Shown: in pieces, positions 1,792 to 63,700 of the stretch
How the letters are laid out: each line of letters opens with the position of its first letter
Position numbering within the stretch: the first letter of the stretch is position 1
Assembly (NCBI GenBank): GCA_010093995.1
Contig: ML992507.1
Coordinates: forward strand, 1,051,868-1,115,867
Direction: 5' to 3'
Source: Elsinoe ampelina
Lineage: Eukaryota
DNA length: 64,000 nucleotides
Translations under genes and position numbers: made by a program
Notes under the pieces: generated by a model
What the model saw: only the letters and a program-made list of their open reading frames with translations
Databases searched by the model: none
Told to the model about the DNA's origin: nothing

Positions 1792-2117
1792 TAGAGTAGT
1801 TTTTAGGTAGATATAGCACTATATTAGGTAGGGGTTAGGTACAAAAGCTTAGTAGAGAGAGGTTACCCTAGGTTAGGTACTATACTAAGGTAGGTAGGGT
1901 TAGTATATAGTTATAGTGTTACCCTTAGGGGGGGGGGTACCTAACCTAGTACCTGCCTAATAGTACCTAATAGGTTAGTAGTTAAAGCGCTTACTCTATA
2001 GCTTAGTATATTACTATACCTTACAAATTTTTAGGCCTAACTTTATTACGCTACTTTATTACGTAAAGGGAAGTAGTAAGCAAAATATATAAATTATACT
2101 AGAAGTACAAATATAAT

Positions 2118-4784
2118 CTAGCTAGTAAATTTGCTAACGCTTTCTACTAGGATACTATTAACCTCTCTATGCTCTCTCTCTCTCTAATTTAGAGTAGTTA
2201 TTATTACTATAGCTTAGTACTATAGTAATATTGTCTAGTTAATTTATATTAGTCCTTAATAACAATTTAAGCAAATTATTAGTATTAGTAGCCTTATTCT
2301 CTATCTCTAGTTCTATATTAATCCGTCCTAATAGTAAGGCTACTTTAAGCTTATACTTTAATATTATAAGCTACTAAATAGTTTAAGCTACTAATTTATG
2401 CCTCTACGCATTAATAATATTCTTTGTAATATTAAATACTTACTTAACTCTAACCTCTATAATTAGAATTACTAGAATATCTTTTGCTATATATAATAGT
2501 AATAGATATTCTTCCTCCTTCTCTTTCTACTACTATAAGACATTAAGTTTCTAAATACGGACTAGTAGTGTTATAAGGTAGTCCTTACCTTCTTTAACTA
2601 TAGTACGCTTCGAGGGAACAAATAAGAAGTATAGACTATCGCTTTATAGTAATAGAGTATAACTTTACTTCTTTTGTTTTAGTTAGTTAAACTAGTCTTA
2701 TTACTAGTAATGTAATAGCTTAGGGGTAAAGGCTAGTAAAGTAATTAAGGGGTCTATCTTATTATACTAATAAAGGTACTATAAGAACTTCTTATAATAG
2801 TTGTCTTTATAGTAAGGTTCCTAAGTCTCTATATCCTAAGTGTTATTAGCTACTACTTACTAGAAAGACTATAGGCACTTATATTATATACTATAAGCTT
2901 CTTAGAGAAGTTAAGAATTATTACATAGTTATAGAGTATGCCCTTTCTATTCTTAGTTTATATATAGTATTTCTTAAGCTTTTCTTGTCCCTTTACTACT
3001 ATCTTTTATATAGTAGCTAGCTATATAGGTAGATTATTATAATTCTTAGTACTAATTAGGCCCTCTTTAATTTTATCTAAGAAGTTAAAGAGTGTATTAT
3101 ATATCGTCTATATATGCTAGAGAAGAGGTTAGCTACTAGTACTTAGCTATATTATTACTTTCTTAAAGTTCTCTAGTATTACTATAATAGATTTAAGATA
3201 CTACTACTTATTTAGATTAAGTAATAACTTAGTAAGGTTATAGTTATTAACGTTAGAGAGTAGTTTAGATATTAATACCTTAGAAGAAGTCCTTAGTGCT
3301 TAGAGTATAGTCTTATTCTTAAGCTAATCCTTAATAAAAGGTTTAAGCTTTAATACTTGCTTATATATATTATATGTTAAATTCTAGTATGTCTTAATAT
3401 TATATATAACTTAGTACCTCTTCTTAGGTAGTAGATACTTCTAGAGGTCTATAAATTGTTTAAACTATTATAGAGAACTATTAATTATAATATATATTAT
3501 ATAGAGCTTACCGATATTAGGATATAATAAAATAATATAATAAATGTTATATATCTTCTATAGTAAATTTAGAATAGAGACTAATATTATAATATTCTAG
3601 ATATAGTAGTTTTATAACCTCTCTACTATATTAATCTCTTTACTTGTCTTAAGTTTCAGATGCTTAATAATGTCCTATATAATAAGATTAATAATATATA
3701 CTAGGTATAGAATTATGTTCTTCTTTATGTTCTACTTAATATCTAGTATACCTAGGCTTCTTTCGAGAGACTCTCGGAGTATTCTATTATTTAATATATT
3801 ATCTACTATAACTACGAGTAGTTATTACTTAACTAATACATCTTTTAGTACCTATATTACTTTATTTACTATAGCTTTACTAGTATAGCAACCTCGAAGG
3901 AGTATTATTTCTAGGAGCCGCTTTTATAATTACTATTAGTTATTAATAAAATAGCCTTTAATTATAATAAACTCTAAGTAGTTATTAGTAGACTATCTAT
4001 CTAACGCTATTAAAAGCTTAGTATTCTTACTAAGGTTAGAAAGTAGTAATTTTTGTAACTTCTCGAATTATACTACTAGTGTTACTTAAAAAAGAGTCTA
4101 GCTAGGTATAGTAATATTAGGTCGGAGGAAGCGGAGGAATTAGCTAAAGGTAGAACACTTAACTATGCGGAAAGACAAGTTATAGTTAGTAACTACGTAA
4201 ATAAGCTTATAGTAGAAAGTATTAGTAGAGAATAGAGAGACAATTTAGTAAATACTCTTTATATACTATTATAATTACTTAAGGGCTTTTTAGGTAGAGC
4301 TTTACTTATAGTAGTACTTAACAACTATAGTATATTTCTAGGACTTAAGATGTCTCTCTATTACTTTATTACTAGTATAATAGTAAGTAAGATAAGTAAG
4401 TATATTACTATACCTATTATAAATAACTTATAGTTCTCTATTATAAATCTTAGTAGCTTCTATAATATTTGTCTATAGACCTCTAGAACGTGCTTTAGAA
4501 TTCTAATTTAGTATATTTTTTGTACCTTCTCTATATATAGATACTATAATTATTTAACTCTACTAGTCTTTCTAGGCTTATTATAGAGGTTAATCCTTAG
4601 ATCTCTTACTAGGTTAAAAAAGTAAGCATTTAAGGAGTTATAATTGTTATATCTTACTATTGTGTCTAATTTTCTAAGCGGAGATTATAAAGCTATATAA
4701 TTCTACTAGAATAGCTAGAGAGAAATATGTAGTATCTCTAAGTTATAGGTCAAGTACCGACTTAAAGTTAGAAGCTTTAGATAT
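2118..4784 (-). pseudogene. hAT transposase of hAT-1 copy 1 (RIP-inactivated; ends approximate)
   Basis: De-RIPped C-terminus reads LQWWKEKKEEY..LSRMAKDILAIPIAGVGVERVFNIAKNVISARRHKL, the hAT C-terminal dimerization domain. Confidence 0.88.
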
Positions 4785-5058
4785 ATTAATTAGTATAGAT
4801 TATATTATTTAATAAAGGTAAATAACTTATTATAGAATATTTATTAATATGTTTATAATATATAATAATAAATTCTATACTATACTATAGAAACTTTAAA
4901 GTAAGAGATATATTAATTTCTATAGGCTAGACTTATATTATATAGGGGCTAAGGAATAAGTAATATAATTAAAATTAAAGGTATATCTATATTAAAGTAG
5001 AGTAGAAATTTTTTAAAATTAAAGGTATATCTATATTATAAAAAACCTACTAAAGCTA

Positions 5059-5580
5059 TTAGCCCGCTAATGCTTTATTTACATTATACTACTAAACTAG
5101 TTACTAGAAGAATTAGAACTATTAAGATCCTTAGGATTTAGAATTATCTAGCTTGTCTTACTAGTGTTTAACGCTATAGCGTATATTAAAGATTATAATC
5201 TAATCCCGGATAAGATTAAGATAGCGACGATTAAGTATATACTATATGTTAATAAAGTTAAAAATATTATTAGTCTAGGAGCTATTATACTAATACTTGT
5301 TAGAGAATATAGTAGTATTAGATTAGGAATACTAACAAAGTTATAAGGGGTATTATAAGAGTAATAGGCCTTATAGTAAAGTTTAGAGCCTCTATTATTA
5401 TTATAGATATAAGTAGTCTACCTTTCCTCGCTATTAATAAATTACTTAGTTATATAGCAGATATAAGCTTTATACTAACATAAGTGTAATAGCCTAGCGT
5501 AGTTACTATAAGTTATAGTATAAGGCTAGTAGGGAATTAGATCTTCTAGGTCGGAATAGAGTTATATATAAGAAGCTATA
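5059..5580 (-). pseudogene. Putative six-Cys zinc-cluster-like cargo gene of hAT-1 copy 1
   Basis: Reverse complement of ~57269-57790; homologous to 45052-45578 of hAT-3. Confidence 0.55.
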
Positions 5581-5858
5581 ATAATAAGGAGAAAGGTTTT
5601 AAAAAGAAAAATAAACAGGAACGAGATAGCATATATATCTAGTACCTTCTATTGTTTATAGTAATAATAGTAATAGAAATCTATTGTTAGAAGTAATAAT
5701 ATAGATAATTTACTATTGTTAGAGGTAATAATTAGAAGCATAAATAACAATAGTAGCTATATAGGAAAAGATCTTATTATAAAACTTAAATCTATAAAAG
5801 GGCTAGACTATACTATAGATTAAACTACTTAGTAGTTAATTGTAGTATAGAAAATCCA

Positions 5859-7193
5859 CTAGTTAAAGCTAGTAAATTTATTTTCCTTAGCATTAACTAT
5901 TTCCTTATTCCCTTCCTTATTATTATTCTTATTATTATTCTTATTATTATTCTTATTATTATTCTTATTATTATTATTCTTCTCCTTATCTCTACTCTCT
6001 AAAGAACTCTCCGCTTTAACCCTCTCTCTCTTATTAATAATCTTATTCTTATTAGAGGAAAACCTCTTAAACTCTATATACTACTTGTCTATCTTATACT
6101 TATTAGCTAGTTTCTCGATCTTAGAGTTATAGTCTAGCTCGTATGCTTCTTTATACTTGTTATTATTGTTAGGCTTTATATATTTACCTTTATCTATAAG
6201 ATAGATTAGCTTAAGTAGTTAATACTTAGCCGGAGGTATAGGATTATAAGCCCTGCTATTTGTTAGTATACTAACGTAATAATAATATATAATAATAATA
6301 GAGAACTTATTACTAGTTAGGATTAGAGATAGTAGTAAGCCTACCCTTCTTACTAAGTTTCTAGACAAACTTTAAGTACTTCTTCTTAGTATTCTTATTA
6401 GTATCTTTATTAATAGTAAGCTTAGTAGTACTAGCTATATAGATCTTATACTTAAGCTTCTCGAGAATTTCGCTAGAACTATATATCTACTTAGCTACTC
6501 TTAACATGTTATTCTTCTTACTAGACTTAGTAGTATAAGCTACTTTTACCTTTATAAGGACTTCTATATACTCTTAACATATAGCAAATTTTCTAATACG
6601 CTACTATTTAATATAGACTTTTCTAAACTTACTAGATAGCTACTTATCTATAATCTATTAGTATTAAATATAATAATATAGCGGTATAATTATATAGCTT
6701 TACTAGGCATCGAAATAGTACTACTTTATTTCCTTAATCTTTTCTATAAGGAGTTCTACCTTTACTTCTTTACTAAGGTTCTAGACTTAAGTATTTATAT
6801 TAAACTTCTTAAGCAAATTCCTCTTTGTACTATAATTAGTATCTCTAGCTACTTTAAGTGCCTTAACCTTAGCCGACTATTAAGTATCTTTATCTTAGTG
6901 TATAATGTTCTAAATATTCTACTTTAAAGGCTTACTTAAACCTGCTTTAAAACTAGTTAGATAACTATAATATGCCTTACTACCTTAACTACGCTAAAGG
7001 ATCTAGTATTTGATTTTAGCCTACTTAGACCTAAAGCCTTATACCTATTAACTTAATACTTGTAATAAAACACTATAATAATTATCTCTATTATAGTTTT
7101 AAACTTATTAAACTTATTCTTAATCTTAGGAGAGCTACTAGGAGAAGTATTAGAAGGTATATTAGCTATAGAAGTATCTAGAGAGGTTACTAT
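5859..7193 (-). pseudogene. Conserved hAT cargo ORF2 with acidic C-terminal tail (hAT-1 copy 1)
   Basis: Homologous to 18110-19378 and 49058-50329 (shared LNTGS motif); (aag aat aat aat)n tail read as RIPped EDDD repeats. Confidence 0.65.
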
Positions 7194-7831
7194 AGTAAAA
7201 TAAGATATAAAAGTTAAACTTAAGAGTATAGAAATAAAAGGGTAATAGAGATAAGAAGAAAGAAAGTTAATAGAAGAAGAAGAAGAATAGAGGAGAGTAA
7301 TATAGCCTTTTACTATATATAAAGTAATAATAAGGTAGCTAAGGTAGAATATAAAATATAAAATATAAGGTTTTTAAGAATTATAGTATACTAAATTAGT
7401 ATTATATTATTATGCTAGATTATTATATACTTATTGTTAGTACTCTATAATATCTAGATTCCTCTTCTTCTAAGCGTTTAAACAAATCTAATATTATATG
7501 CCTTACTATTATAAATAATATTATAATAAGTAAGTATTCTATATACTATATATTTCTAATTTGCTAATTTTATATTTCTATTATAATATTATATTTCTAT
7601 TATTAGCTGTGCTATTACTAGCTACTAAATTATTACGTATTTCTCTTCTTATTATATATTTCTCTTCTTCTATCTCTTTTACCTCTTCTCTTTCTACTTA
7701 TCTTTCTTTATACTACTACTATATCTACCTCGTTACTTTCTACGCCTCTTACTACCTTACTCTTACTACTACAAGATTACTTTATATTATAAGTACCTCC
7801 TAAGACTCTATTCTTAGTAGCAATAGTAAGT

Positions 7832-8375
7832 ATACCTTCTAAGAGAGGTACTATAGTATTAACCTATAGTTATAGTTATAAGAGTAAGTCGTCTAGTAGA
7901 CCTAAGGCTTCTACTACTAAGTAACCTTATAAGATAACTATTACTTCTAGAAAGAAGAACAAGTTTAAGACTAGTAGTATAATTATTATAATTAATTATT
8001 ATATTACATTACTAATACTATATAGCTATTGCTCTCTAAGAGATTCGTTACTACTAGAAGTTAACTAAACTTCTCTACTATAAGCTTTCCTTTAGCTACC
8101 TTATCTATAAGATTATTAAAGACTATATTTGTTAAAATAAAAGCTTTTATATCTAATCTAAAGCTCTTAAAGCACTTTAAGAAGCAATAGAGGCATTTAT
8201 TATTAAGTATATAGAAGATATCTATTGTTTAAATTTAATACTATTATAGATACTAATATTCTTAGATATAAACCTTAATTGTATTTATGCTAAGTAAGTT
8301 ACTATTAACTAGAAAGATTTATAGCTTGCTTGTCGCTATTATACAAAGTTTAATATATATAACTAGGACAATTAG
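7832..8375 (+). pseudogene. Histone H3-like gene in hAT-1 copy 1 (introns 7977-8025, 8218-8265)
   Basis: De-RIPped: MPSKRG...RKKNKFKAG|TVALREIRRYQKSTELL.RKLPFSRLIREI...ALEALQEATEAFIV.YME|DMNLNCIHAKRVTINQKDLQLA; complete H3 histone fold; intron ends and ctaat branch sites visible. Confidence 0.92.
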
Positions 8376-9404
8376 ACAGTTTATAGCAAGGATAATTATT
8401 CTATAAAGGTAAATAAGCAAGTAAGGTATAGGCTATAAGAGTAAATAGGAGGTACTAGCAAGATTAGTATAATTAATAAACGTAATTATAACCTTTAACT
8501 TTTAAATTTTAATTCTTAAATCTTAAGTTCTTAAAAGATATATCTACTCCTCGACTCTTAGGCACCTATAGGTACTATTAGGTAGTGTTATAAGTAATAC
8601 TATAACTAACTATATACCTAAGGCTAAGTAACACTACCTAAGGCTTAGAGAGTTACGGTTGCTAAGCTTTAGGTACTAGTATCGCTATAAGTTAGGTTGT
8701 AGGTAGCAATTCTAGTACCTAACCTAACCTAAAAACTACTCTAAACTATAAATACTCTTTCTAGGAAGGTTAAGATTAATAGAAATAGGTATAAAGGATA
8801 TAATAGTTACTTAGTTTAGATTATGCCTATTCTATTTAAATCGACTAACACTAACTAGTATATCTAATGCGAGATAGATACGAACTAGATCTAGTTAGGA
8901 TCTAGTTTAGATTAGTCACGTAATCTCGGCATTGTAGCCTAGGCTTCTAGCTGCTTTGCCCTCGATATTACGTGTGCTTTATATACTAGCTTTTCTTCTT
9001 CTTCTTCTAAGTCTTAATATCTTAATAAATAGACGTAATTAACCTCTTATCTTGCTAGTTGTAATTACTATATCGAGACTTCGAAACGACTATAACTAAG
9101 CAACGGAGCTATTAAATTATCTAGTTATTCTACTACTTACGTAACTACTAACAACTACTACTTATAAAGAATTAAAGAATTAAAGAAGAAGCTATTATAA
9201 CTGCAGTTCCCGCGTATACTATAATAGATCCTCGCTGCCGCTATATAGGTTAATACTATAAACTCTAAAGATACAAGAAGAAGGTAATAAGTTAAGTTAT
9301 AGATAACTCTTAAAGGAAGTAGGCCGCTAGCTAAAAATTTTAATATCTCCTTTGTTACGTATTAACGTTTTATACTATTTTATTTACAACTAACTATACT
9401 AAGT

Positions 9405-10778
9405 ATAGCTTAATCTAACTATAGCGACGAAGAGCGCTACTAAAGTAAGCTACCTTAACCTATCCCTAATAATAATAACGCCCCTATCTACTCCCCCTAC
9501 TATGATCTTTTTACCCTCTTTAACGCTATACTCCTTAAGAAGCTATAGGAAGAGCATAGTATATAGGCACTAAGAGACATATTTAACTATGTTAAGTCCT
9601 CCTATAATAAGTAAACTACGTAGGTAAAAGGCGCTTATACTAATACTCTCTACTATTACTATAAGTTAGATACTACTTAGGCCTAGCTCGGTAACCTCTA
9701 ATCCGAACTAGACGTATCTTAGTCCTATACTAACAGTATTACTGCCTAAGCTACTTGCTACCTAGACAAAATCTAAGAGCTTAAGGCTAAGGTAAACTAA
9801 CTAAGAAACAAGATAGGGCGTAGTATACTAGCTCTTTCTATACGCGGCCCTACCTTGTTAGAAAAGATACTAGACTCTACTGTCTTTAGCATAGATACAC
9901 CGGAGTAGTTTAAGGTCTTTAAGTACTAGATAAGGAACAAGATATGTACTAACGTAAATTATTTCTCTACGAGGGATACTTAGTTTACCTATCTATACTT
10001 ACGCCTCTCTAGAGAAGTCTATATCCTTATTATAGACTTAGCTAGTAACGACGTTATTAGCATTAAAGAGGTCCTTACTCTCCTAGCCTAGCGCTTTAAG
10101 GATCCTAACTATAGGGCTACTATACGCACTTAGTTCGCTAACCTCTTCTAGCGTAATAGTATATTTAACTCCTTTATTAGCAAGTTTAACAAGTATGCCC
10201 TTTACGCTAAGATTGCTAAAGAGGAGTAGCTATACTAGATCTGTTAGAAGATATCTAATAAGCTACGTAATGCTCTAGTTAACTACGACACTAATAACCT
10301 TACTACCTTTATTACTAAGGCCTACGCTACCGACTATAACATCTAATAGAATAACCTTATCACTAAGCGTACTTAGGCTTTACGTTCTATACTAGCTATA
10401 AGCCGCGCCGCTACTATACCTACTTACGTACCTTATTCTACCTCTACGCCTATAGCTTTGCCTACCTTCTACTTTATCGCCGGAGGTGCTTTATAGCCTT
10501 TCTATCTAGCTCTAGCACTTACCTGTTATATATATAGCAAGCCTAGATATATCTCTACTAAGTATATAGCTAGCGCCTTAGAGAAGGCTACTTATGCCGC
10601 TATATGCCCCGCACGTATTAGCGCTATAGAGGAGATATAGTAGCTTTAGAATTGCTTAGCCGAATTAAGTAACTAGGTCGACACTAGTTCGGCCTACGAA
10701 CTAGATCTAGTTTAGCCTTAGTTTAACCCCGAAATAGACTATAAGTCTACTAGCTACTCTAGCTAGAGAAACAAGTAG
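9405..10778 (+). pseudogene. gag: Gag of Gypsy A (start approximate)
   Basis: De-RIPped CCHC knuckle CYVCGKPGHISTKC at ~10524-10565; frame ends GNE* at the frameshift site. Confidence 0.8.
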
Positions 10779-13700
10779 CTAGAGGATAAGTTCTATTCTC
10801 TAGCGGAACAAGGGTAATTCGAGATAGATCCGGAGGTATATAGTTACTAAATAGCGTTATTAGCTACTATATCCCCGCTATTATAACTCCTATTACTATT
10901 TACAACTCTTATAACCGCTCTTACACTATTACACTTTAAGCCTTTATTAACACTAGCGCGCTTATTAGCGCCGTAGTTAATTATAACGTTCTTAATAAGC
11001 TAAAGAGCTTCGGCTACCCCGTAGTACTAGCTAGTCCTATTTAGCTTTAAGCCTACAATAGTGTTCTAATAGAGCAAGTTATATATAGCATTCCCCTTAC
11101 TACTACCGTTTCTAGTAAGCTAAATAACTTTACTATCTTTTGTATTATAGATATTAGCTAATTTAACATTATTCTTAGCCTTAGCTAACTTAAGGCTAAT
11201 AGGGCTACTATCGACTATAAGCACGGCTAAGTTATATACAAATAAGAGTTTTCGCCGATAGTTATTAAGTAGGAGCTGCTATAGCTAATTAAAAGACTAG
11301 AATCTAGATCTAAGCCTAGCTCGGATCTAGGAATCTAGCTTAGTAAAGCCGCCGCCCTAGTTTAGAACTAGTTTAGTTCTAGTCTAACTTGTAAACTAAG
11401 TTCTAGCTTAGCTACTAAGTTAGGACGAACTAGACTATATTAGCTACTAGCTCTTAGGTTGAACTTTAAGCTAAATTAGGGAGAGTTTAAGCTAATCTCC
11501 TATAGCACTTAGTTAATGTATAAGTTCTTCTACTTACCTACCTACGTAAGTAATACTAAACAGAAAGAGCCGACTATTGCCTTTATTAGCGTAGCTACCT
11601 TTATATTAGTAGCTAAATACTAAAAGAATAAGGTGTTTATAATCTTAGTAAAGAATATCAAGGACTACTACTAGATAGCTTCTAAGCTAGAACTAGACTC
11701 TATAGTAGTTCTCCTAGAGGAGCTATAAGAGTTTACCGACATCTTCTCTAAAGAGTAATCTAACATGCTCCCTCTATATCGGCTAGATTTCGACAATCGG
11801 ATTACACTTAAGGATAGAGCTAAACTACTACGCACTAAACTCCTTTACTGCCTATTACTAGAGAAGCTCGATATAGTAGAGCTATTTATCCGTAAGCACC
11901 TTAATAAAGGCTTTATTATACTAAGCTTAGCTAGCTATTTCTTGCCTATTCTCTTTGTTTATAAGCCTAGTAGCGGACTCTACCTTTACGTTAATTACTA
12001 TAGCCTTAATAAGGTAACTAAGTAAGATGTCTATTCTCTATCTCTTATTAAAGAAACACTTACGCGCGTAAGTAAAGCTAAATAGTTTAGTAAGATTAAT
12101 ATCTATTAAGCCTTCTACTACCTCTATAACTCTGTTAATAGCGAAGACCTTACTATATTCTCTATATATATAGGTAACTTTAAGTAGCTAGTAATACTAT
12201 TTAGCCTTACTAACGCCTCTATAGTATAGTAGAAGTTTATAAATTATAACTTTGTTAATATACTAGAGCGCTTCGTATTAATCTACTTTAATAATATTCT
12301 TATTTATACTAACGGCTCTTGCCGAGAGCATGCCGAGCATATTAAGCTAGTACTCTAAAGGCTCTACGAATTAGGCCTAAACACTAATATTAAAAAGAGT
12401 AAGTTCTACCTAGCGGAGGTAAAGTACCTTAGTATTATTGTTAGCCGAGACAGAGTTAAGATAGATCCTAAGAAGGTAGAAGCTATTAGGGCCTAGAAAT
12501 AGCTAGCCTCTAGTAACACTACTTAGGTAAGGAGCTTTATTAGTTTCTATAGCTATTATTATTGCTTTATTAAAGGATTTAGTACTATTACTAAACTACT
12601 AAACAATTTGCTTAAGAAGGACGCTGCACTATAGAACAATAGGTATACTACTATATTTAATTATATAAAGTACACTATTATAAGTGCGCTAATTCTTATA
12701 TATTTCGACTAGTTAAAGTAGATAATCCTTAAGACCGACGCCTTCGACACTACCACCGCTAGGATTCTATTATAATATAATAAATCCGATGTCCTCTAGC
12801 CTATTGCCTTCTTTAGTAGATCTATAAGTAAAGCCGAATATAACTATGCTATCTACAACAAGGAACTACTAGCTATTGTTTAAGCCTTTAAGGAGTAGGC
12901 CCCTAAGCTTATAAGCACTTAATCCAACAAGGCTATCTACGTTCTTACTAACTACTAATCCTTAATACACTTTATAAAGACTTAGAAGCTATTACGCCGC
13001 TAAGCGCGCTAGGCTCTCTACCTTGCGTAGTTTAACTTTAAGATTATATATAGGCCTAGCGCCGCTAATAGCAAGGCTAACGCGCTTATAAGGAGAAATA
13101 GAGATATACTATATTTAAAAGAAGACTCTAATCTACGCTAGACGCTACTACTATATAAGGTGCTAGATTAGTGCATTATTAACAAACTAAATCTAGATCG
13201 CATCTAAACTAAATTACTAATCTAAGCCGAACTAAGATCTAGTTCGGTATCTAGTTTATAAACTAGTTCGCTATCTAGTCTATTACCTATTTTACCTCCT
13301 ATTTCGCTACCTATATCGGCGCCTATTTCGGCTGCCGAACTAGGCATCTACGTAGCACCTATCTTAGCTATAGAAGAGCCTTTACTCCTTTTCGACGAAG
13401 TAGCTAAAGCTAACCTACGAGACTCTAATTTCGAGACAGTTCGTAGCATCTACTATATAATAGAAGCCTTCCTAAAGAGGAAATAGCTACTATCGACTAA
13501 TGTTACAATTAAAAAGGAGATGCTATAGGCTAATAGCCGACTAATCGTGCCTTTCTCTATAGCTATAAAGGTTATCTAAGGAGTTTATATATCGAAGGAT
13601 TATATACACGTAGGAGCCACTAAGACAGCTACTATAATAAAGTCTACTTTCTATATCCCCGGATACAATAGTAATATTAAGAGGTTCGTTGCTAACTGTT

Positions 13701-29680: not shown

Positions 29681-29690
29681 NNNNNNNNNN
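29681..29690. other. Assembly gap (10 N) inside the Gypsy B 3' LTR
   Basis: Run of n. Confidence 1.
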
Positions 29691-50329: not shown

Positions 50330-50705
50330 TATAGATCGAGAATTAGTAGTAATTTATAAGAGAAGGTAGAATATTAAGTATAACAAGGAGCAAGATATAA
50401 GATATAAGTTTTATAAGAAGAAGATAAGGAGAGAAGGATTTAGTATTCCTTATATATATAGTAAATAGAGTAGCTAGAAATATAAGTAATAATAGGTATT
50501 AATCCTATTATTATACTAATATAAAGTTATTAATATTGTTAATATAAAGTTGTTATAGTAGAGAATAACAATACAAAATTCATATTCTATATACTATTAT
50601 AAATTCCTTAATAAGGCTTAATATCTTGCTCTTAGTATTTTCGCCTTGCTTTTCTCTACCTTTATAAATAAATTTTAATAATCAATTTAACAAATTTACG
50701 TAGCT

Positions 50706-51290: not shown

Positions 51291-54200
51291 GACCTCTCCT
51301 CTATAATACTATAAGAATAGACTATAAGAAATAGGTAGGTTTATTTTTATATAGACTAGACTATTAAATTTCCTTTCTATAGACTTATTATAATACTAAA
51401 GTACAGTGTAGTAGCTATAGTCGCCTTAAAGCCTAACTAAGGCGTAGTGCTATAACGTAGTATAATACTAGAATTTAACCCCGGTACTAATTCGGTATAG
51501 TGCTATTATAGTATAGTATAGCGCTATTATAGTATAGTGCTATTCTTACTTAACTATAGTATAGTGCTAGTACTAGTGTAGCTCGGCGTAGTACTAGTGC
51601 TAGTACTAATATAGTAGAGTACGGAGCTAGTGCTATTTAGTTTAGCACCGGGTGCCGACCCGCTAAGAACAGCTCTATACTAGCACCGGGGTCGGCCTTC
51701 GGCCGCTCTAACCCCGCCCTAATAGTTATACTAAGAAATTGTATCTTATATTTATAAAACTTACACTTAGAGAGCTTTATAAGTAGGTCTTTTTCTTTTA
51801 GTTTTTATAGTACCTTATAAACATATCCTATATATTTATTATATATCTTTAAGAAGACTATAATATTATCTAAGTATACTAAGACAAAGTTATCGAGGTA
51901 TTCCCTAAGAGTGTTATTAATTAATTCTTAGAAGGATATAGGTGCATTAGTTAGGCTAAAGAGTATAATAAGGTACTTATAGAGTCCTTATCTAGTTCTA
52001 AAAGCTGTCTTCTATTCCTTACTGTCCTTTATCTATATTCGGTAATAGGCATCTCTAATATTAATTATAGTAAACTATTTAGCTTTAATAAGTTAATTCT
52101 AAAGTTTATTAATCCTCGGAAGAGTATAATAGTTCTTTCTAGTAATTATATTAAGTTTCTAGTAATTAATATATAGTTATAGTAACCTATTCTTCTTAGG
52201 TGCGAAAAGTACTTTATATATAATTAGTAATTTTAATAGTTGTATAAACCCTTTTTGTAGGTACTTATTAATATATTTCTTAAGGAAGTCTTTCTTCTTT
52301 TTCGATAATAGTATAAGACCTTAGTAGTGTATTAGGGATTTTCCTTCCTTAAAAGGTATCTTGTAATTCTATAGTTTATATTAGAGTAAAGCTATAATGC
52401 CTTTTCTTTCCTTAAATAAGTCCTTAAAGTCTTTATATTCTAGTAGAAGTACTTAATCGCTTACGCTAGTAATAGTCCTAACTATTAGTTATACCTATAC
52501 TATTCTTGTAGTTAGTATCTATAGAGCTAATTATACTTCCTACGTTCTATAATTATACTTAGGGAATTTAAGTATTTCTTTAATCTAGTCTACGTCTAGA
52601 TTGTGTTATTAAAGCTAGTCTATACTAAGTACTATATTGTACTATATATCTACTATATTAATTAATTGTTTTTCTATATATATTTTAATTTTAATTATAA
52701 CATTTTATAGTTCCTAAGTAACTTTTCTATTCTTTCCTATAGGGGTTCTATCCGCTATAGTAAGTAGGTAAGGTAACTTCTTCTAATATTAATAAGGTTT
52801 AAGCTAATTAGCAACTATTATAGAGACGTAGCTATAGTTAGCTCCTAAATCTATTATTACTCTTACTTTATTCTCTTATATTTCGACTTCTAGTATAAAG
52901 TAGTTTAACGTATAGATCTTTATTATATTAAGGCTTTAGCTAGTGTTATTGTCTTATCTTATTAGGCAATAACTAGCTAGTTTTTTATTATTATAGCTCC
53001 TTAGATAAGTAGCTAATCCCTTTCTACACGTATCTACTATTAGTACTATACCTATTAGGCTAGTTATGTCTTATTGCTGTTTAATATAGTAAGGTAGACT
53101 TCTAGCGCTTAAGTTCCTTAATGACTATAAAGTTTAATAATCCCTTACTAATTATACTAAGTAGTATTATATACCTATATCGGTATAACTATTCCCTTTA
53201 GATAGAGCTATATATTAGCGTCGAAGACGAACGTAGGTTAAGTAGATTTATCTTATTATATTCTATTCTAGTAGTAGATATATATTATTATATAATTTCT
53301 CTATATTTCTATAAGGTATGCCTTAAGTCGTCTGCCTAGTAGTAGTACGTCGTCGTTGTTAAATAAGTTCTTATTCGTGTTATTATATTATAGTTATTTA
53401 GTGTATTCTTCGTTATATTCCTCTTCGTCGCTACTGCCCTTAGTATAGTTATAGTTAGTAAGGCTACATCGAGTACATTCTCGTACTTAGCTATAGAGAG
53501 TAGTACTACCTATTTCGATTACTAAGAAGTCTATAGTATATTCGAGACTAACGGCCTCTTCTCTAAGTATATCGTGTAAGTAGATAGTGTAGTACTATTT
53601 ATAATCTAGATTTGTGTATTTCTAGAGCGATATATAATATACCTTTCCTTGTAGTTTACTATAAAGGCTAAAGGTAAGGCTACTATATTGTTATATAGTA
53701 CTTATGTCCTAATACTTCGTTTTAATAATCGTATATTAGTAGTTGTTACTAACTACCTTCTAAGGTTAGTTAATGTTACTACTAATTATAGAGAGTTCTT
53801 CTAGGTTAAGCTCCTAGTCTAGCTATTTCGTTAGTTATCTACGCTTAGATAGCCTATATAGAAACTAACTAGATCTCTACTTATCTAACAAGTAAATATA
53901 ATAAGAGTTATTATAATATACTATCTATAATAGCGTCGCGTATTAGCTTTATTATTTGCTATTAGTTATAGAGATATTAAGCGTAATATCTAGAGAGAGT
54001 TCTATTGCCTCTCGAGTTGTCGTAGACTTCTTCTATATTTCCTTACCTACGCTAAAGGTCGTTAGGTCTTCTATAGTAGTGTCGGCCTTTGTCTTTACTA
54101 GCCTAGCAACTATTATATATAATCTATTAGCTAGAGTAGTTTTTAGGTTAGGTTAGGTACTAGAATTGCTACCTATAACCTAATCTATAGCGATACTAGT

Positions 54201-54499
54201 ACCTAAAGCTTAGTAACTATAACTCTCTAAGCCTTAGGTAGTGTTACTTAGCCTTAGGTATATAGTTAGTTATAGTGTTACTTATAATACTACCTAATAG
54301 TACCTATAGGTGCCTAAGGGTCGAGGAGTAGATATATATCTTAAGAACTTAAGATTTAAGAATTAAAATTTAAAAGTTAAAGGTTATAATTACGTTTATT
54401 AATTATGCTAATCTTACTAGCACCTCCTATCTACTCTTATAGCCTACGCCTTACTTACTTATCTACCTTTATAGAATAATTGTCCTTACTATAAACTAT

Positions 54500-55043
54500 C
54501 TAATTGTCCTAGTTATATGTATTAAACTTTATATAATAGCGATAAGCAAGCTATAAATCTTTCTAGTTAATAGTAACTTACTTAGTATAAATATAATTAA
54601 GGTTCATGTCTAAGAATATTAGTATCTATAATAGTATTAAATTTAAATAATAGATACCTTCTATATACCTAACAATAAATGCCTCTATTACTTCCTAAAG
54701 TACTTTAAAAGCTTTAAATTAGATATAAAAGCTTTTATCTTAATAAACATAGTCTCTAATAATCTTATAGATAAGGCAGCTAAAGGGAAGCTTATAGTAG
54801 AGAAGTTTAGTTAACTTCTAGTAGTAATAAATCTCTTAGAGGATAATAGCTATATAGTATTAGTAATATAATATAATAATTAATTATAATAATTATACTA
54901 CTAGCCTTAAACTTGTTCTTCTTTCTAGGAGCAATAGTTGTCTTATAAGGTTACTTAGTAGTAGAAGCCTTAGGTCTACTAGACAACTTACTCTTATAAC
55001 TATAACTATAGGTTAGTACTATAGTACCTCTCTTAGAAGGCAT
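54500..55043 (-). pseudogene. Histone H3-like gene in hAT-1 copy 2
   Basis: Reverse complement of 7832-8375; retains ATG CCT TCT AAG start, the GT of intron 2 and ATG AAC CTT (MNL). Confidence 0.92.
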
Positions 55044-55681
55044 AGTTACTATTACTACTAAGGATAGAGTCTTAGGAGGTACTTATAATATAAAGTAATC
55101 TTATAGTAGTAAAGGTAAGGTAGTAGAAGGCATAGAAAGTAACAAGGTAGACATAGTAGTAGTATAAAGAAAGATAAGTAGAAAGAGAAGAGGTAAAAGA
55201 AGTAGAAGAAGAGAAATACGTAATAAGAAGAGAAATGTATAATAATTTAGTAGCTAGTAATAGCATAGCTAACAATAGGAATATAATATTATAATAGAAA
55301 TATAAAATTAGCAAATTAAGAATATATAGTATATAGAATACTTACTTATTATAATATTATTTATAATAGTAAAGTATATAATATTAGATTTGTTTAAACG
55401 CTTAAAAGAAGAGAAATCTAGACATTATAGAGTATTAATAATAAGTACGTAATAATCTAGTATAATAATACAATACTAATTTAGTATACTATAATTCTTA
55501 AAAACCTTATATTTTATATTTTATATTCTACTCTAGCTACCTTATTATTACTTTATATATAGTAGGAAGCTATATTACTCTCCTCTATTCTTCTTCTTCT
55601 TCTATTAACTTCCTTTCTTCTTGTCTCTATTACCCTTTTATTTCTACCCTCTTAAGTTTAACTTTTATATCTTATTTTACT

Positions 55682-56989
55682 ATAGTAACCTCTCTAGATA
55701 CTCCTATAGCTAATATACCTTCTAATACCTCTCCTAGTAGCTCTCCTAAGATTAAGAATAAGTTTAATAAGTTTAAAACTATAATAGAGATAATTATTAT
55801 AGCGTTTTATTATAAGTATTAAGCTAATAGGTATAGGGCTTTAGGTCTAAGTAGGCTAAAATTAAATACTAGATCCTTTAGCATAGTTAAGGCAGCAAGG
55901 CACATTACAGTTATCTAACTAGTTTTAAAGCAGGTTTAAGTAAGTCTTTAAAGTAGAATATTTAAAATATTATATACTAAGATAAAGATACTTAATAGTC
56001 AGCTAAGGTTAAGGCACTTAAAGTAGCTAGAGATGCTAATTATAGCGCAAAGAGAAATTTGCTTAAGAAGTTTAATATAAATACTTAAGTCTAGAACCTT
56101 AGTAAAGAAGCAAAGGTAAAACTCCTTATAGAAAAGATTAAGAAAATAGAGTAGCGCTATTTCGACGCCTAGTAAAGCTATATAATTATACTACTATATT
56201 ATTACGTTTAACACTAATAGATTATAGATAAATAGCTATCTAGCAAGTTTAGAAAAGTCTATATTAAATAGTAGTATATTAGAAAATTTGCTACATGTTA
56301 AAAGTATATAGAAGTCCTTATAAAGGCAAAGGTAGCTTATACTACTAAGTCTAGCAAGGAGAACAATATATTAAGAGTAGCTAAGTAGATATATAGTTCT
56401 AGCAGAATTCTCGAGAAGCTTAAGTATAAGATCTATATAGCTAGCGCTACTAAGCTTACTATTAATAAAGGTACTAACGAGAATACTAAGAAAAAGTACT
56501 TAAAGTTTGTCTAGAAACTTAGTAAGGAGAGTAGGCTTACTACTATCTCCGATCCTAACTAGTAGTAAGTTCCCTATTATTATTACATATTATTATTACA
56601 TTAGTATACTAATAAATAGTAGAGCTTATAATTCTACGCCTCTAGCTAAGTATTAACTACTCGAGCTAATCTATCTTATAGATAAAGGTAAATATATAAA
56701 GCCTAATAATAATAACAAGTGTAAAGAAGTATACGAGCTAGACTATAACTCTAAGATTAAGAAACTAGCTAATAAGTATAAGATAGACAAGTAGTATATA
56801 GAGTTTAAGGAGTTTTCCTCTAATAAGAATAAGATTATTAATAAGAGAGAGAGGGTTAAAGTAGAGAGTTCTTTAGAGAGTAGAGATAAGGAGAAGAATA
56901 ATAATAAGAATAATAATAAGAATAATAATAAGAAAGAAAATAAGGAAATAGTCGATACTAAGGAAGATAAATTTACTAGCTTTAACTAG
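55682..56989 (+). pseudogene. Cargo ORF2 with acidic tail (hAT-1 copy 2)
   Basis: Reverse complement of 5859-7193; LKLNTGS at ~55856; probable introns near 56172-56220 and 56566-56619. Confidence 0.65.
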
Positions 56990-57268
56990 TGGATTTTCTA
57001 TACTATAATTAACTACTAAGTAGTTTAATCTATAGTATAGTCTAGCCCTTTTATAGATTTAAGTTTTATAACAAGATCTTTTCCTATATAGCTACTATTA
57101 TTATTTATGCTTCTAATTGTCACCTCTAACAATAGTAAATTATCTATATTATTACTTCTAATAATAGATTTCTATTACTATTGTTGCTATAAATAATAGA
57201 AGGTACTAAATATATACGCTATCTCGTTCCTATTTATTCTTCTTTCTAAAACCTCTCTTTCTTATTAT

Positions 57269-57790
57269 TATAGCTTCTTATATATAACTCTATCTCGACC
57301 TAGGAGATCTAATCCCCTACTAGCCTTATACTATAACTTGTAGTAACTATACTAGGCTACTACACTTACGTTAGTATAAAGCTTATATCTGCTATATAAC
57401 TAAGTAATTTATCAATAGTAAGGAAAGGTAGACTACTTATATCTATAATAACAATAGAAGCTCTAAACTTTGCTATAAGGCCTATCGCTCTTATAATACC
57501 CCTTATAACTTTATTAGTGTTCCTAATTTAATACTACTACATTCTCTAATAAGTATTAGTATAATAGCTCCTAGACTAATAAAATTTTTAACCTTATCGA
57601 CATATAGTATATACTTAATTATTACTATCTTAATCTTATCTAGGATTAGATTACAATCTTCGATATACGCTATAGCGTTAAACACTAGTAAGACAAGCTA
57701 GATAATTCTAAATCCTAAGGATCTTAATAGTTCTAATTCTTCTAGTAACTAGTTTAGTAGTATAATATAAATAAAGCATCGGCGGGCTAA
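57269..57790 (+). pseudogene. Putative six-Cys zinc-cluster-like gene (hAT-1 copy 2)
   Basis: Aligns to 45052-45578 (ctctatctcgacctaggagatctaatcc; ttacgttagtataaagcttatatctgc; ends gcatcggcgggctaa). Confidence 0.58.
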
Positions 57791-58064
57791 TAGCTTTAGT
57801 AGGTTTTTTATAATATAGATATGTCTTTAATTTTAAAAATTTTCTACTCTACCCTAATATAGATATACCTTTAATTTTAATTATGTTACCTATTCCTTAG
57901 CCCCTATATAGTATAAGTCTAGCCTATAGAAATTGATATACCTCTTGCTTTAAAGTTTCTATAGTATAGTATAGAATTTATTATTACGTATTATAAACAC
58001 ATTAACAAATATTCTATAATAAGTTATCTACCTTTATTAAATAATATAATCTATACTAATTAAC

Positions 58065-60726
58065 ATGTCTAAAGCTTTTAACTTTAAGTCGGTACTTAAC
58101 CTATAACTTAGAGATACTACATATTTCTCTCTAGCTATTCTAGTAGAATTATATAGCTTTATAATCTCCGCTTAGAAAATTAGACATAATAGTAAGATAT
58201 AACAATTATAACTCCTTAAATACTTACTTTTTTAACCTAGTAAGAGATCTAAGGATTAACTTCTATAACAAGCCTAGAAAGACTAGTAGAGTTAAATAAT
58301 TATAGTATCTATATATAGAGAAGATACGAAAAATGTACTAAATTAGAATTCTAAAGTACGTTCTAGAGGTCTATAGGCAAATATTATAGAAGCTACTAAG
58401 ATTTATAATAGAGAACTATAAGTTATTTATAACAGGTATAGTAATATACTTACTTATTCTACTTACTATTGTACTAGCAATAAAGTAATAGAGAAATATC
58501 TTAAGTCCTAGAAATATACTATAGTTGTTAAGTACCGCTATAAGTAAAGCCCTGCCTAAAAAGCCCTTAAGTAATTATAATAGTATATAAAGAGCATTTA
58601 CTAAATTGTCTCTCTATTCTCTACTAATACCTTCTACTATAAGCTTGTTTATGTAGTTACTAACTATAACTAGTCTTTCTACATAGTTAAGTATTCTACC
58701 TTTAGCTAATTCCTCTACTTCCTTTAACCTAATATTACTATACCTAGCTAGACTCTTTTTTAAGTAACACTAGTAGTATAATTTAAAAGATTATAAAAAT
58801 TGCTACTCTCTAACCTCGGTAAGAACATTAAGCTTTTAATAGCGTTAGATAGATAGTCTACTAATAACTACTTAGGGTTTATTATAATTAAAAGCTATTT
58901 TATTAATAACTAATAGTAATTATAAGAGTAGCTTCTAGAAATAACACTTCTTCGAGGTTGCTATACTAGTAAAGCTATAGCAAATAAAGTAATATAGGTA
59001 CTAAAAGATATATCGGTTAAGCAATAACTACTTATAGTTATAGCAGATAATATATTAAATAATAGAATACTCCGAGAGTCTCTTAAAAGAAGCCTAGGTA
59101 TACTAGATATTAAGTAGAATACAAAGAAGAATATAATTCTATACCTAGTATATATTATTAATCTTATTATATAGGACATTATTAAGTATCTAAAACTTAA
59201 GATAAGCGAAGAGATTAATATAGTAGAGAGGTTATAAAACTACTATATCTAGAATATTATAATATTAGTCTCTATCTCGAATTTACTATAGAAGGTATAT
59301 AATATTTATTATATTATTTTATTACGTCCTAATATCGGCAAGCTCTATATAATATATATTAAAATTAATAGTTCCCTATAATAGTTTAAATAATTTATAG
59401 ACCTCTAGAAGTATCTACTACCTAAGAAGAGGTACTAAGTTATATATAATATTAAGACATGCTAGAATTTAACATATAATATATATAAGCGAGTATTAAA
59501 GCTTAAACCTTTTATTAAAGATTAGCTCGAGAATAAGACTATGCTCTAAGTACTAAAGACTTCTTCTAAGGTATTAACATCTAAACTGCTCTCTAACATT
59601 AACAACTATAACCTTACTAAGTTATTACTTAATCTAAATAAGTAGTAGTATCTTAAATCTGTTATAGTAATACTAGAGAACTTTAAGAAAGTAATAACAT
59701 AGCTAAGTACTAGTAGCTAACCTCTTCTCTAGCATATATAGACAATATATAATATACTCTTTAACTTCTTAGATAAAATCGAAAAGGGCCTAATTAGCAC
59801 TAAGAATTATAACAATCTACCTATATAGCTAGCTACTATATAAAAGGTAGTAGTAAAGGGATAAGAGAAGCTTAAGAAATACTATATATAAACTAAGGAT
59901 AGAAAGGGCATACTCTATAACTATATAACAATTCTTAACCTCTCTAAGAAGCTTATAGTATATAATATAAGTGCCTATAGTCTTTCTAGTAAGTAGTAGC
60001 TAATAACACTTAGGATATACTTAGGAACCTTACTATAAAGACGACTATTATAAGGAGTTCTTATAGTACCTTCGTTAGTATAATAAGATAGACCCCTTAA
60101 TTGCTTTACTAGCCTCTACCTCTAAGCTATTACGTTACTAGTAATAAGACTATTTTAACTAACTAAAACAAAAGAAGTAAAGTTATACTCTATTACTATA
60201 AAGTAATAGTCTATGCTTCTTATTTATTCTCTCGAAGTATACTATAGTTAAAGAAGGTAAGGACTACCTTATAACACTACCGGTCTATATTTAGAAACTT
60301 AATATCTTATAGTAGTAGAAAGAGAAGAAGGAAGAATATTTATTACTATTATATATAGTAAAAGATATTCTAGTAATCCTAATTATAGGGGTTAGAGTTA
60401 AGTAAGTATTTAACATTACAAAGAATATTATTAGTGTATAGAGGCATAAATTAGTAGCCTAAACTATTCGGTAGCTTATAATATTAAAGTATAAGCTTAA
60501 AGTAGCCTTACTATTAGAACGGATTAATATAGAACTAGAGACAGAGGATAAGGCTACTAATGCTAACAATTTGCTTAAATTATTATTAAGGACTAATATA
60601 AATCAACTAGACAATATTACTATAGTACTAAGCTATAGTAATAATAACTACTCTAAATTAGAGAGAGAGAGAGCATAGAGAGGTTAATAGTATCCTAGTA
60701 GAAAGCGTTAGCGGATTTACTAGCTA
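58065..60726 (+). pseudogene. hAT transposase of hAT-1 copy 2 (ends approximate)
   Basis: ATG at 58065; dimerization domain at ~60300-60500. Confidence 0.88.
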
Positions 60727-63700
60727 GATTATATTTGTACTTCTAGTATAATTTATATATTTTGCTTACTACCTCCCCTTACGTAATAAAGTAGTATAAT
60801 AAAGTTAGGCCTAAAAATTTATAAGGTATAGTAACGCGCTAAGCTATAGAGTAAGCGCTTTAACTACTAACCTATTAGGTACTATTAGGCAGGTACTAGG
60901 TTAGGTACCCCCCCCCTAAGAGCGATACTATAACTATATACTAACTCTACCTACCTTAGTATAGTACCTAACCTAGAGTAACCCCTCCCTACTAAGCTTT
61001 TATACCTAACCCCTACCTAACGTAGTACTATATCTACCTAAAAACTACTCTACTATTAGCTAGCGCCTCTTATTAGTAGTCCCTAGCCCGATGCCTAGGT
61101 CTTTTACACTTAAAATATAAATTGTCTTATCTATACTTCTCTCTCTCTTTTCTACTAAGGAACTTTCCTCTATAGCTATAGCCTTATACCTATAAGGGGC
61201 AGCCTTCGTATATAGTATTAAGTTCTATAGAGTCTCTATAGTTTCGAAAGGAACATATATATCTAGTGTTTGTCTTATATCCTCTATAACGTTCTATATG
61301 TCGTTTATAGAGTTAGTTATTAATAGTAATTATAGTATCTACTAGTTCCTATAGACTATTAGGTAGCTTAGGTATTATCTAGTCTTTAACTAAGTCGCTT
61401 AGTCCTTAGTAGAATACTAAGTGTTTAGCGCTATTATCCTAGTCTAGATACATTACGAGTTATTAGAACTAGGAATAATACTAGGCTATAGACCTACATT
61501 GTTATAGTTGTTAAATCTTTATTGTAGTAATACGTTCCTTATCCGACACGTTAAAGACTTACTTAATCTTAGCTTAGAATAGCCTAAAGCTTTTAAAGAT
61601 AGTCTTCGTGTCTAGACTTAGTTACTTGTCTAGGTAGCTTCCTATATAGAGTTTAAACTACCTAAAGGTAGCACTCTTAAGCTATATACTAGCGTAAAGG
61701 ACCTTAGCTATATCGTTAGTATACTTATCTCCTTCTAGGGCAAAGAAGGCCTTAAGCTAGATAAGAAAGTGCCTTAGATAGGCGCGGTCCCTATAGAAGA
61801 GTTCTACCTCTATCTTAGACTTACCTCGTTCTTTGCCTATACTAATAGACCTTCTATATTTACCCGAGGTTAAACTAGTAGTAGATATATCGTTAATAGT
61901 AAGCTTTCCTAGCTTACTAGCGATTAAAGATGCTAATAGTAACTTAGAGTAAGAGTTACTTATTAACCTCGTAGTATACTATACTATAGTAAGGGTAGTT
62001 AAAATATTATAAACTGTCTAAATATAGTCTACGCTAGTAGTCTAAGCTAAGCTAAGAACGAGGTAGTTCTACTTCTATAGTAGTATAGTACTAAGGTAAG
62101 AGTTAGAGAAGGTATATCTTATAGATAATAAAGTATAATTAGATAGTATTATAAAGGCTAGCCTTAGTAATACTAGTATTTACTATCTAGACGAGGTTAA
62201 CTATAATATTACTTATAAAGGAGAGTATAGTATATATCTTATGTCGTGTTATAATTACCTTAAGTAATTATAAGTAGTAGTTACTCTAATTACTCGTAAG
62301 CGAAGTAATCTAAGATAGTTAGTTCCTCTACTTCCTTTTATGCTTCCCTAGCGTAGCCTAGCCACGTCTCTAATTAGCTTGTCTATAGCCTAGCTACAAG
62401 TTTATTATAAAGTCTTTCTCGTTATTCTTCTACTAATTAAGTACTTTAAATCCTAGTATACTCTAGACTAGAGGGATATTAAGGTAGTTCTTGCTCTTCT
62501 AATAAGTAGTTTAAGAACTCTCCTATTAATCCTAGATTACTAAGCTAATATTAGACTAGAAGCTAAAGCTCGTCTAGGGAGAGGTAAGCTATATAGGTAA
62601 CTAAGGTCGATAGAACTAATTATCTTTATCTTTAAGTAGGGTTATAATACTTAGAGTCTTAGGTAGACTATCTAGAGAAGGTAGTTTACTATTATAGTAA
62701 CTAAGGTAGTTAAGAAATTACTTATAATACTTAGCCTTATTAGATTTCTCCTAGGTGTTATTCTATAATATAATTAGCTTACTATAAGAATATATTTATA
62801 AGCTATAAACCTCGTAGGGGGTTAGCTTTTATATAGAGTCTAAGACTATACTATAATTAAAGAGGTACTCTCTCTTGTTATTAGTATAATTATAGTACTT
62901 TAATAATTTATCTCGACCGTGCTCTACTATAAGTCTAACTACTTTAGGCTAAGGCTTATTATTATCTCTCTCCTTGTCTATAGTGCTATTCTCTATCTTA
63001 TTAAGGAAGTTAAATAGACAATTATATATTAACTAGATATATATAATTAGTAGGTAGCTAATAGTACTTAACTAAGTAGTTACTACCTTAAAGTTCTTAA
63101 GCATCTTTATTACTAGCTTAAGGTATAACTACTCTATACTATTAAGCTAAAGACGTTTAAGATCCTTATAATCTAGATTACTAGTATTAGTACTAACTAA
63201 GTTAGGTCCTATACTAGTAGAACTCTTTATTATAATCTCCTATTTAAGCTATTAGTCGATTAATAGTCTAAGCTTAAGACTACGCTTATACATATTAAAG
63301 GTTAAGTTCTACTATGTCTTAACATCTTAAATAATAGCCTTATACTCTCGAGGTATTATAGCTTATTAAAGAGTTATAAACCTCTTAAAGTATTAAGGTA
63401 ATTAATCGATAGTAATATAGGTTATATAGAGCTAGGAATTAATTAGACTATAATTAAAAACTATAATTAAAATACTAACCTTACGAAGTAAGTTTAGTAC
63501 TAAAAGTTTAATAGAGATCTTTCTTAAGTACTACCTTTTAAGCCTAGTAGCTTATTTATCCTCCTTAGTAGTCTTAAGGTCGAGGTACTTAATAATATTC
63601 TATATAACAAGATTAATAATATATAAGGCATAGAATAGTGTTTTCTTATATACTCTATGTAATACCTACCTACCTAAGAAGCCTTTATACTATCTTATAT

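Follow-up and report, generated by a model that had tools for sequence, protein, structure and literature searches.

Does a histone gene carried inside a DNA transposon serve the transposon, or is it passive cargo? The question is raised by a 64,000-nucleotide stretch of the Elsinoe ampelina genome (GenBank assembly GCA_010093995.1, contig ML992507.1, positions 1,051,868 to 1,115,867 of the forward strand; hereafter the window), which holds four complete hAT elements from three lineages (hAT-1a, hAT-1b, hAT-2, and hAT-3). Each of the four carries a transposase gene, a histone H3-like gene that we term H3L, and a partner region, ORF2, on the strand opposite H3L. Fungal hAT histone genes have so far been treated as accidental cargo; the persistence of H3L across three lineages suggests a gene serving the transposon. 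The explanation that we think probable is that these elements, all of them killed through repeat-induced point mutation (RIP), are copies of three sister lineages of a single hAT clade, the ancestor of which already carried a transposase, an intron-containing H3L, and a divergently transcribed ORF2.

An H3-like gene in RIP-mutated elements

RIP yields transitions, never transversions, and we therefore used transversions as a RIP-proof clock for divergence and for codon-position tests; all coding reads were made through RIP-type stops, which were written as X. The window is a mosaic of repeats with a GC content of 24 to 37% across its entire length and hardly any open frames (in the whole of it, 8 stop-to-stop frames reach at least 90 amino acids). 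Over ~6900 sites, 428 transitions and 8 transversions separate the inverted copies hAT-1a and hAT-1b, and 155 of the 293 classifiable C/T changes between them lie in a CpA context. The excess of transitions, the CpA bias, and the low GC content together mark a RIP-mutated, AT-rich fungal repeat block, and a RIP signature is likewise described for H3-carrying hAT elements in the passages that Dhillon 2019 (PMC6710886) devotes to them. Every gene in every hAT copy of the window was inactivated by RIP after the lineages had diverged, and the H3-like gene which the earlier note called complete is so only on a reading through RIP-type stops. The expression check that it had proposed came to nothing: four sequencing runs under the same species label gave, against the elements, a sole match of 40 nt attributable to chance.

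H3L has three exons in all four complete elements, as is plain when the copies are aligned at the nucleotide level, and coordinates are collected in Table 1. Its introns, A and B (47 to 55 nt), start with GT, end with AG, and hold a CTAAT-type branch site, the sole non-GT start being that of intron B in hAT-1a, which begins with AT where hAT-1b has GT. Once the introns are taken out, four of four copies read as a single uninterrupted H3-type frame; hAT-3 H3L is out of frame when unspliced, and its frame becomes continuous only after both introns are removed. The introns interrupt the same two codons in all three lineages. Exon lengths in hAT-1, hAT-2, and hAT-3 (145/136/169, 192/192/198, and 101/101/101 nt) differ exclusively by multiples of 3, and intron lengths (49/47/50 and 48/51/55 nt) vary by 1 to 7 nt. 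The hAT-1a gene comprises 145 codons with 8 in-frame stops, and its start codon has been mutated from ATG to ATA; ATA also stands in hAT-2 and hAT-3, ATG in hAT-1b alone. An H3-like gene with its introns kept is thus present in each lineage, as had been claimed.

Table 1. Elements, genes, and other features, numbered from the first nucleotide of the window. TIR, terminal inverted repeat; TSD, target site duplication; LTR, long terminal repeat.
Feature	Positions	Strand	Remarks
hAT-1a	1792-8743		complete, 6952 bp; perfect 17-nt TIR TAGAGTAGTTTTTAGGT; no matching TSD
hAT-1a transposase remnant	2356-4637	-	interrupted by RIP stops; dimerisation domain (C-terminal) lies in a different frame
hAT-1a ORF2 remnant	5858-7427	-	head-to-head with H3L; ~520 codons, C-terminal tail rich in K/N
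hAT-1a H3L	7832-8366	+	exons 7832-7976, 8026-8217, 8266-8366; introns 7977-8025, 8218-8265
hAT-1b	54132-61052		inverted copy of hAT-1a; TSD CTATTAGC; sits within retrotransposon copy 2
hAT-1b H3L	54509-55043	-	ATG and intron B GT intact
hAT-1b ORF2	about 55448-56990	+	inverted copy of hAT-1a region
hAT-1b transposase	about 58212-60489	+	inverted copy of hAT-1a gene
hAT-2 copy 1	17832-30406		5.7 kb of hAT, interrupted by nested retrotransposon; paralogous empty site 10866-10873; TSD ACTATATC
hAT-2 ORF2 remnant	18101-19624	-	frame changes near 18820
hAT-2 H3L	19720-20246	+	exons 19720-19855, 19903-20094, 20146-20246
hAT-2 transposase remnant	20724-22982	+	same strand as H3L; Dimer_Tnp_hAT 2.3e-8
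hAT-3	43884-51733		7850 bp; 23-nt TIR TAGTATAACTATTAGGGCGGGGT; TSD AGAAATTA/G; sits within retrotransposon copy 2
hAT-3 transposase remnant	46496-48618	-	Dimer_Tnp_hAT 1.2e-8
hAT-3 ORF2 remnant	48893-50557	-	head-to-head with H3L
hAT-3 H3L	50706-51278	+	exons 50706-50874, 50925-51122, 51178-51278
~450-bp segment common to hAT-1a and hAT-3	5139-5585 (hAT-1a); 45049-45504 (hAT-3)	- (hAT-1a)	opposite relative orientation, different position
Nested Ty3/gypsy-type LTR retrotransposon	23003-29861	+	LTRs; gag, RVT_1, RNase H, integrase; 5-bp TSD ATAAT; foreign to hAT
Second hAT-2 copy, right end	40069-40743	-	inverted; carries the same nested retrotransposon (40743-62304)
Second hAT-2 copy, transposase part	62406-64000	-	cut by window end

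The histone identity of the gene comes from profile and structure-based comparisons. Pfam recognizes hAT-1a H3L as Histone (PF00125; 2.2e-8, 34.8 bits, against a cut-off of 26.4), exon 2 of hAT-3 H3L gives a match under that cut-off (0.0025, 18.5 bits), and hAT-2 H3L is 54% identical to that of hAT-1a. Against solved structures, hAT-1a H3L matched 172 distinct sequences at E<=0.01, in collinear alignment, and among the best 60 of these 172 there are 58 named ordinary histone H3 and one named only "Histone domain-containing protein." H3L is, for all that, not a canonical H3, having neither the standard loop 1 length nor the glutamine of helix 1. Loop 1 is 3 to 5 residues longer than in solved H3 in all three lineages (a 3-residue gap in the hAT-1a alignment), and a serine replaces the helix-1 glutamine (the PFQRL stretch of solved H3) in three of three, encoded by AGC in hAT-1 and by TCT or TCC in hAT-2 and hAT-3. 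A longer loop 1 and a missing helix-1 glutamine are hallmarks of CenH3, the centromeric class that includes CENP-A, and in both of these H3L resembles it; it differs in that its best 60 solved matches are nearly all ordinary histone H3. The top solved match is an H3.1/CENP-A chimera (6.5e-11; the leading ordinary H3 chains have 8.1e-11 to 1e-10), an edge of 0.3 bit that is trivial, and we did not adopt a CenH3 origin for H3L.

Lineage divergence and constraint on H3L

The transposases provide the yardstick against which H3L can be read. Each element has one long conserved transposase frame, with 36 to 39% amino acid identity between lineages in six-frame comparisons (one of these left out self matches and matches to hAT-1b, and the other kept matches above 45 bits, dropping those to H3). 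The Pfam dimerisation domain Dimer_Tnp_hAT (PF05699; cut-off, 21.4 bits) is recognized in hAT-2 (34.1 bits) and hAT-3 (35.0 bits), and the hAT-1 match (2.3e-4, 21.3 bits) falls 0.1 bit under the cut-off. The catalytic core, the BED finger, and DUF659 gave zero Pfam matches at E<=0.1 in the read-through frames, where RIP damage may hide them. Overall transversion distances between the transposases are 0.18 to 0.22, and the fractions at codon positions 1/2/3 for the three lineage pairs are 0.17/0.17/0.27, 0.19/0.17/0.30, and 0.16/0.11/0.27. In the three-way alignment, from which, as in the H3L and ORF2 counts below, columns gapped in any lineage were dropped, 161 of 533, 131 of 534, and 271 of 531 columns at positions 1, 2, and 3 vary by transversion (p=2e-20). 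About 20% of transposase sites therefore differ in a manner outside RIP's reach, and this distance, together with the codon bias, indicates that the lineages truly diverged, as the earlier note held, with purifying selection on the transposase.

RIP has been intense, and it accounts for many of the differences among the elements; the left and right TIRs of hAT-2, for example, differ by 5 transitions and 0 transversions. One might on that ground take the three lineages for copies of a single element in heavy disguise, an idea that we find scarcely credible when the true copies hAT-1a and hAT-1b, with their 8 transversions, are set against the ~20% in the transposases, and when lengths, gene order, and internal content differ as well.

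The ends of the elements place these lineages close to one another. All TIRs start with TAG and are 17 to 23 nt long, and over their first 17 nt the lineages differ by 2 to 3 transversions, the remaining differences being transitions. The TIRs, which had been described as different, are accordingly variants of one sequence, and this relationship makes the lineages sisters within one clade and their common content most readily a matter of descent rather than convergence. An 8-bp TSD flanks hAT-1b, hAT-2, and hAT-3, and for all three the window also contains a paralogous, uninterrupted target site with a single 8-mer, which demonstrates that all three lineages transposed. Canonical hAT cut-and-paste carried each element as a whole, and the ends first assigned to all four proved exact. 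Short TIRs, 8-bp TSDs, and the dimerisation domain are those of the hAT superfamily, with hAT-1a the exception as to the TSD, since no matching 8-bp duplication was found at its ends. Inverted repeats of 1.46 kb (1-1456 and 8911-10366; 91% identical) flank hAT-1a at distances of 336 and 167 bp. An element without a TSD between such repeats might reflect recombination between copies rather than simple insertion.

H3L has diverged in step with the transposase: its pairwise exon transversion distances of 0.18 to 0.23 equal those of the enzyme. At codon positions 1, 2, and 3, transversions affect 43, 31, and 55 of 140 columns each (chi-square p=0.008; positions 1+2 versus position 3, Fisher p=0.0097), and exons vary less (129 of 420 columns) than introns plus flanks (69 of 156; p=0.003). 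The frame was kept through indels of 6, 9, 24, and 33 nt. Modest as this signal is, it shows H3L to have been a constrained coding gene that diverged alongside the transposase under past purifying selection, much looser than that acting on host H3. The preservation of frame, exon lengths, introns, and codon bias argues that H3L was a working transposon gene while the lineages diverged, not neutral cargo.

These distances bear also on how often the histone was captured. Each hAT lineage could have taken a host H3 gene with its native introns separately, much as Dhillon 2019 (PMC6710886) proposes in its discussion of hAT elements from different fungal orders, and the common intron positions could then be the host gene's own. 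We regard such repeated capture as very improbable, because the H3L copies differ from one another as much as the transposases do, share the same departures from solved H3 (the long loop 1 and the serine), and stand in the same place beside a homologous ORF2 in elements with related TIRs. Common descent best accounts for these features, and H3L would in that case go back to one acquisition, from a genomic H3-type gene with introns.

The ORF2 partner and other features of the elements

Transposase, ORF2 region, and H3L are present in four of four complete elements. The order is transposase(-), ORF2(-), H3L(+) in hAT-1 and hAT-3, and ORF2(-), H3L(+), transposase(+) in hAT-2. These differing orders imply that the head-to-head ORF2-H3L pair was kept as a unit and came to be inverted relative to the transposase in hAT-2, so that the three-gene module proposed at the outset is shared in its parts, though not in an identical arrangement.

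The ORF2 region always lies on the strand opposite H3L, starting 100 to 400 bp away, and transition-tolerant local alignment recovers collinear homology of 1.0 to 1.7 kb in all lineage pairs, with scores of 158, 121, and 82 where 10 shuffles per pair reached 35 at most. In three of three pairs, cross-lineage protein scores are highest in one and the same frame, and in hAT-1a this frame contains 26 stops in 520 codons, compared with 73 and 91 in the other two. Protein similarity is weak: 23 to 25% over about 600 amino acids without composition correction (same-strand pairs, top 14), and with correction only E=0.02 to 0.09, and in other frames. The protein alignments are unstable, an N-terminal piece of hAT-2 having shifted between runs, and counts of gap length modulo 3 are uninformative, those for the transposase included. 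Of the head-to-head ORF2 of ~1.3 kb that had been claimed, a collinear region opposite H3L in each lineage is thus borne out, at a length of ~1.6 kb and with slight similarity. In the tail, two N/D differences between hAT-1a and hAT-1b are consistent with a D-to-N change by RIP, and going by the direction of RIP the tail may originally have been acidic and rich in D and E. Pfam scans of nine of nine read-through frames returned nothing but one sub-threshold DUF7891 match in the K/N-rich tail, and a full HMMER profile search with a 4-sequence ORF2 alignment against 1.84 billion representatives returned 0 matches. A captured H3-H4 gene pair was considered and found unsupported, ORF2 having no histone-fold (H4-like) match in the Pfam scans. 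As far as its sequence allows, we read ORF2 as a shared, once-open frame without demonstrable sequence constraint.

Several results weigh against a long-retained and selected gene pair. The proportion of ORF2 columns that vary by transversion is the same at all codon positions (178 of 456, 187 of 459, and 183 of 457; p=0.87), so that there is no periodicity; the overall level of about 40% is near the 44% of non-coding columns; alignment gaps are about three times those of the transposase; and ORF2 may not be a conserved protein. For H3L, the signal comes from 420 aligned columns, three lineages, and one MAFFT alignment, and it is weaker than that of the transposase; the Pfam Histone search of hAT-2 H3L, moreover, gave no match. 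The case for a single capture is argued only from shared derived features of the copies. Word-based and profile searches recovered no relatives of the transposase, H3L, or ORF2 from outside the window: an H3L alignment yielded 54 candidates and the hAT-2 transposase 8000 scored candidates, in neither case any at E<=0.001, and RIP-altered queries seem unfit for word seeding.

These points lend color to an interpretation in which an H3 gene and an anonymous open reading frame were captured once, by transduplication, and were then retained by descent and for lack of deletion, with no benefit to the element. That is how Dhillon 2019 (PMC6710886) views the Mycosphaerellaceae elements in its account of them; ORF2 evolves as if neutral, the H3L tails differ strongly between lineages, all copies in the window are dead, and the literature, so far as our searches covered it, gives no function. 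We nevertheless think passive carriage unlikely. Neutral cargo would not be expected to keep its frame through four sizes of indel with both introns still spliceable, to accumulate fewer transversions at the first two codon positions than at the third or in introns plus flanks, to hold a serine across a change of codon family, or to stay joined to its neighbor through an inversion. The proposal that the module was selected rather than passively captured therefore gains from the codon-position and indel signatures of H3L and is weakened by the lack of codon-level constraint in ORF2.

Not all of the span once assigned to hAT-2 (17832-30406) is hAT: its ends are exact, and 6.9 kb of the interior belongs to a nested Ty3/gypsy-type insertion. 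The insertion point lies 20 bp past the dimerisation domain of the transposase. A second, inverted hAT-2 copy also has this retrotransposon, at an identical internal site, and different outer flanks (homology ends at 30406/40069); it seems that the nested insertion came first and that the 12.6-kb composite then moved or was copied in one piece.

The ~450-bp segment common to hAT-1a and hAT-3 also occurs in hAT-1b (57260-57820) and is absent from hAT-2. Between hAT-1 and hAT-3 it is 56% identical in amino acids and about 76% in nucleotides, clearly above the transposases, and Pfam assigned no family to it or to the left 2.6 kb of hAT-3. The rest of the mosaic includes a short repeat family of 60 to 95% identity scattered between the larger elements (8865-9164, 14924-15223, 15845-16144, and 34424-34723) and a repeat of at least 3.9 kb in two copies (10866-14715 and 30407-34208; 74 to 84% identity; also 9903-10873 versus 16861-17831). 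One copy of the latter was the insertion target of hAT-2, which is why the other preserves the empty site.

Published counterparts and a possible chromatin role

Full-text searches found two published reports of H3 in hAT elements, Manning 2013 (PMC3538342) and Dhillon 2019 (PMC6710886), and our comparisons rest on the passages of each that describe these elements. The three-gene layout and RIP-killed, H3-carrying hAT elements are already in print in these reports and hence are not new here; that histone capture by a hAT had been reported from Pyrenophora tritici-repentis, as the earlier note had it, is correct (Manning 2013, PMC3538342). The P. tritici-repentis element, of about 5.6 kb, consists of a transposase, a central open reading frame of unknown function, and an H3-like gene whose product is neither a canonical H3 nor a CenH3 and has insertions in its N-terminal tail (PMC3538342). 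Its copies are described as nearly identical, intact, and expressed, and expressed sequence tags with introns appear in a figure legend (PMC3538342). An in-frame deletion chimera joins the central frame's N terminus to the C terminus of the transposase (PMC3538342), which implies that the central frame and the transposase share a strand, with the former upstream, an order also seen in hAT-1 and hAT-3. By published description, then, the two systems are alike in having three genes between TIRs and in size (hAT-2 is 5.7 kb without its nested insertion); they differ in that the window holds three diverged lineages, all of them RIP-dead, one with the ORF2-H3L pair inverted.

In Pseudocercospora fijiensis and five further Mycosphaerellaceae, the elements bear short TIRs and 8-bp TSDs, occur only in AT-rich blocks, and are RIP-inactivated in all copies (PMC6710886). 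They are described as a single family, about 9.5 kb in size, in which one or two copies of H3 are accompanied by "no other domains"; the H3 is taken to be an intronless retrocopy, captured independently of the P. tritici-repentis case (PMC6710886). They resemble the elements of the window in being RIP-dead, AT-rich hATs with 8-bp TSDs, short TIRs, and an H3-like sequence, and they differ from them in that here we find one H3L per element, with two introns and a partner frame, in three lineages. The passage of the Mycosphaerellaceae consensus that we checked has no intron at either position, in contrast to the two introns in four of four copies here. TIR probes of 16 and 17 nt are absent from the Mycosphaerellaceae consensus file, a 10-nt TIR start occurs in it once, inside a sequence and not at its end, and those consensus starts that were seen are unlike the TIRs here. 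The second H3-like copy of P. fijiensis is reported to have a 16-amino-acid insertion (PMC6710886). Intron B of hAT-1 (8218-8265), at 48 nt, is in frame and reads as 16 residues, the size of that insertion, and the insertion may be an unrecognised intron. Plant Pack-MULE-type transduplication offers a further likeness, in that coding sequence taken from the host is enclosed by TIRs and multiplies along with the element. Those captures, however, are typically fragments in non-autonomous elements, whereas here a whole intron-bearing gene sits in transposase-encoding elements and was kept across lineages.

No functional description of H3L or of a chromatin module of this kind turned up in our full-text literature search, in keeping with what had been stated before. 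How might such a gene have earned its place? In the scenario that we favor, the ancestral element split into lineages that diverged by about 20% transversions, H3L keeping step with the transposase. ORF2 would have encoded a fast-evolving protein with an originally acidic tail and would have shared a bidirectional promoter with H3L. The two products would have acted on chromatin to the benefit of the element, for example through a variant nucleosome or a histone-pathway decoy that eased transposition or delayed silencing by heterochromatin, ORF2 serving as a chaperone-like partner, until RIP killed every gene in every copy of the window. A bolder and decidedly tentative extension, which we offer as possible and no more, would make H3L-ORF2 a transposon-owned chromatin cassette: an H3 variant with a CenH3-like loop 1 and helix 1, paired with a fast-evolving, acidic-tailed, chaperone-like partner, long kept in a hAT clade that possibly includes the Pyrenophora and Mycosphaerellaceae cases, and aiding settlement or survival in AT-rich heterochromatin or blunting H3-based silencing. 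If the cassette reading is true, the neutral-looking divergence of ORF2 would reflect an arms race or protein disorder, not a lack of function.

What the window adds to the published record is evidence that H3L was no passive cargo and was retained over a long time as a gene of the transposon, and this evidence puts in question the independence of the published H3 captures by hAT elements. It raises the wider question of whether some DNA transposons encode a histone variant of their own to manage their chromatin, and the intact copies of P. tritici-repentis are the place where the role of H3L could be tested.

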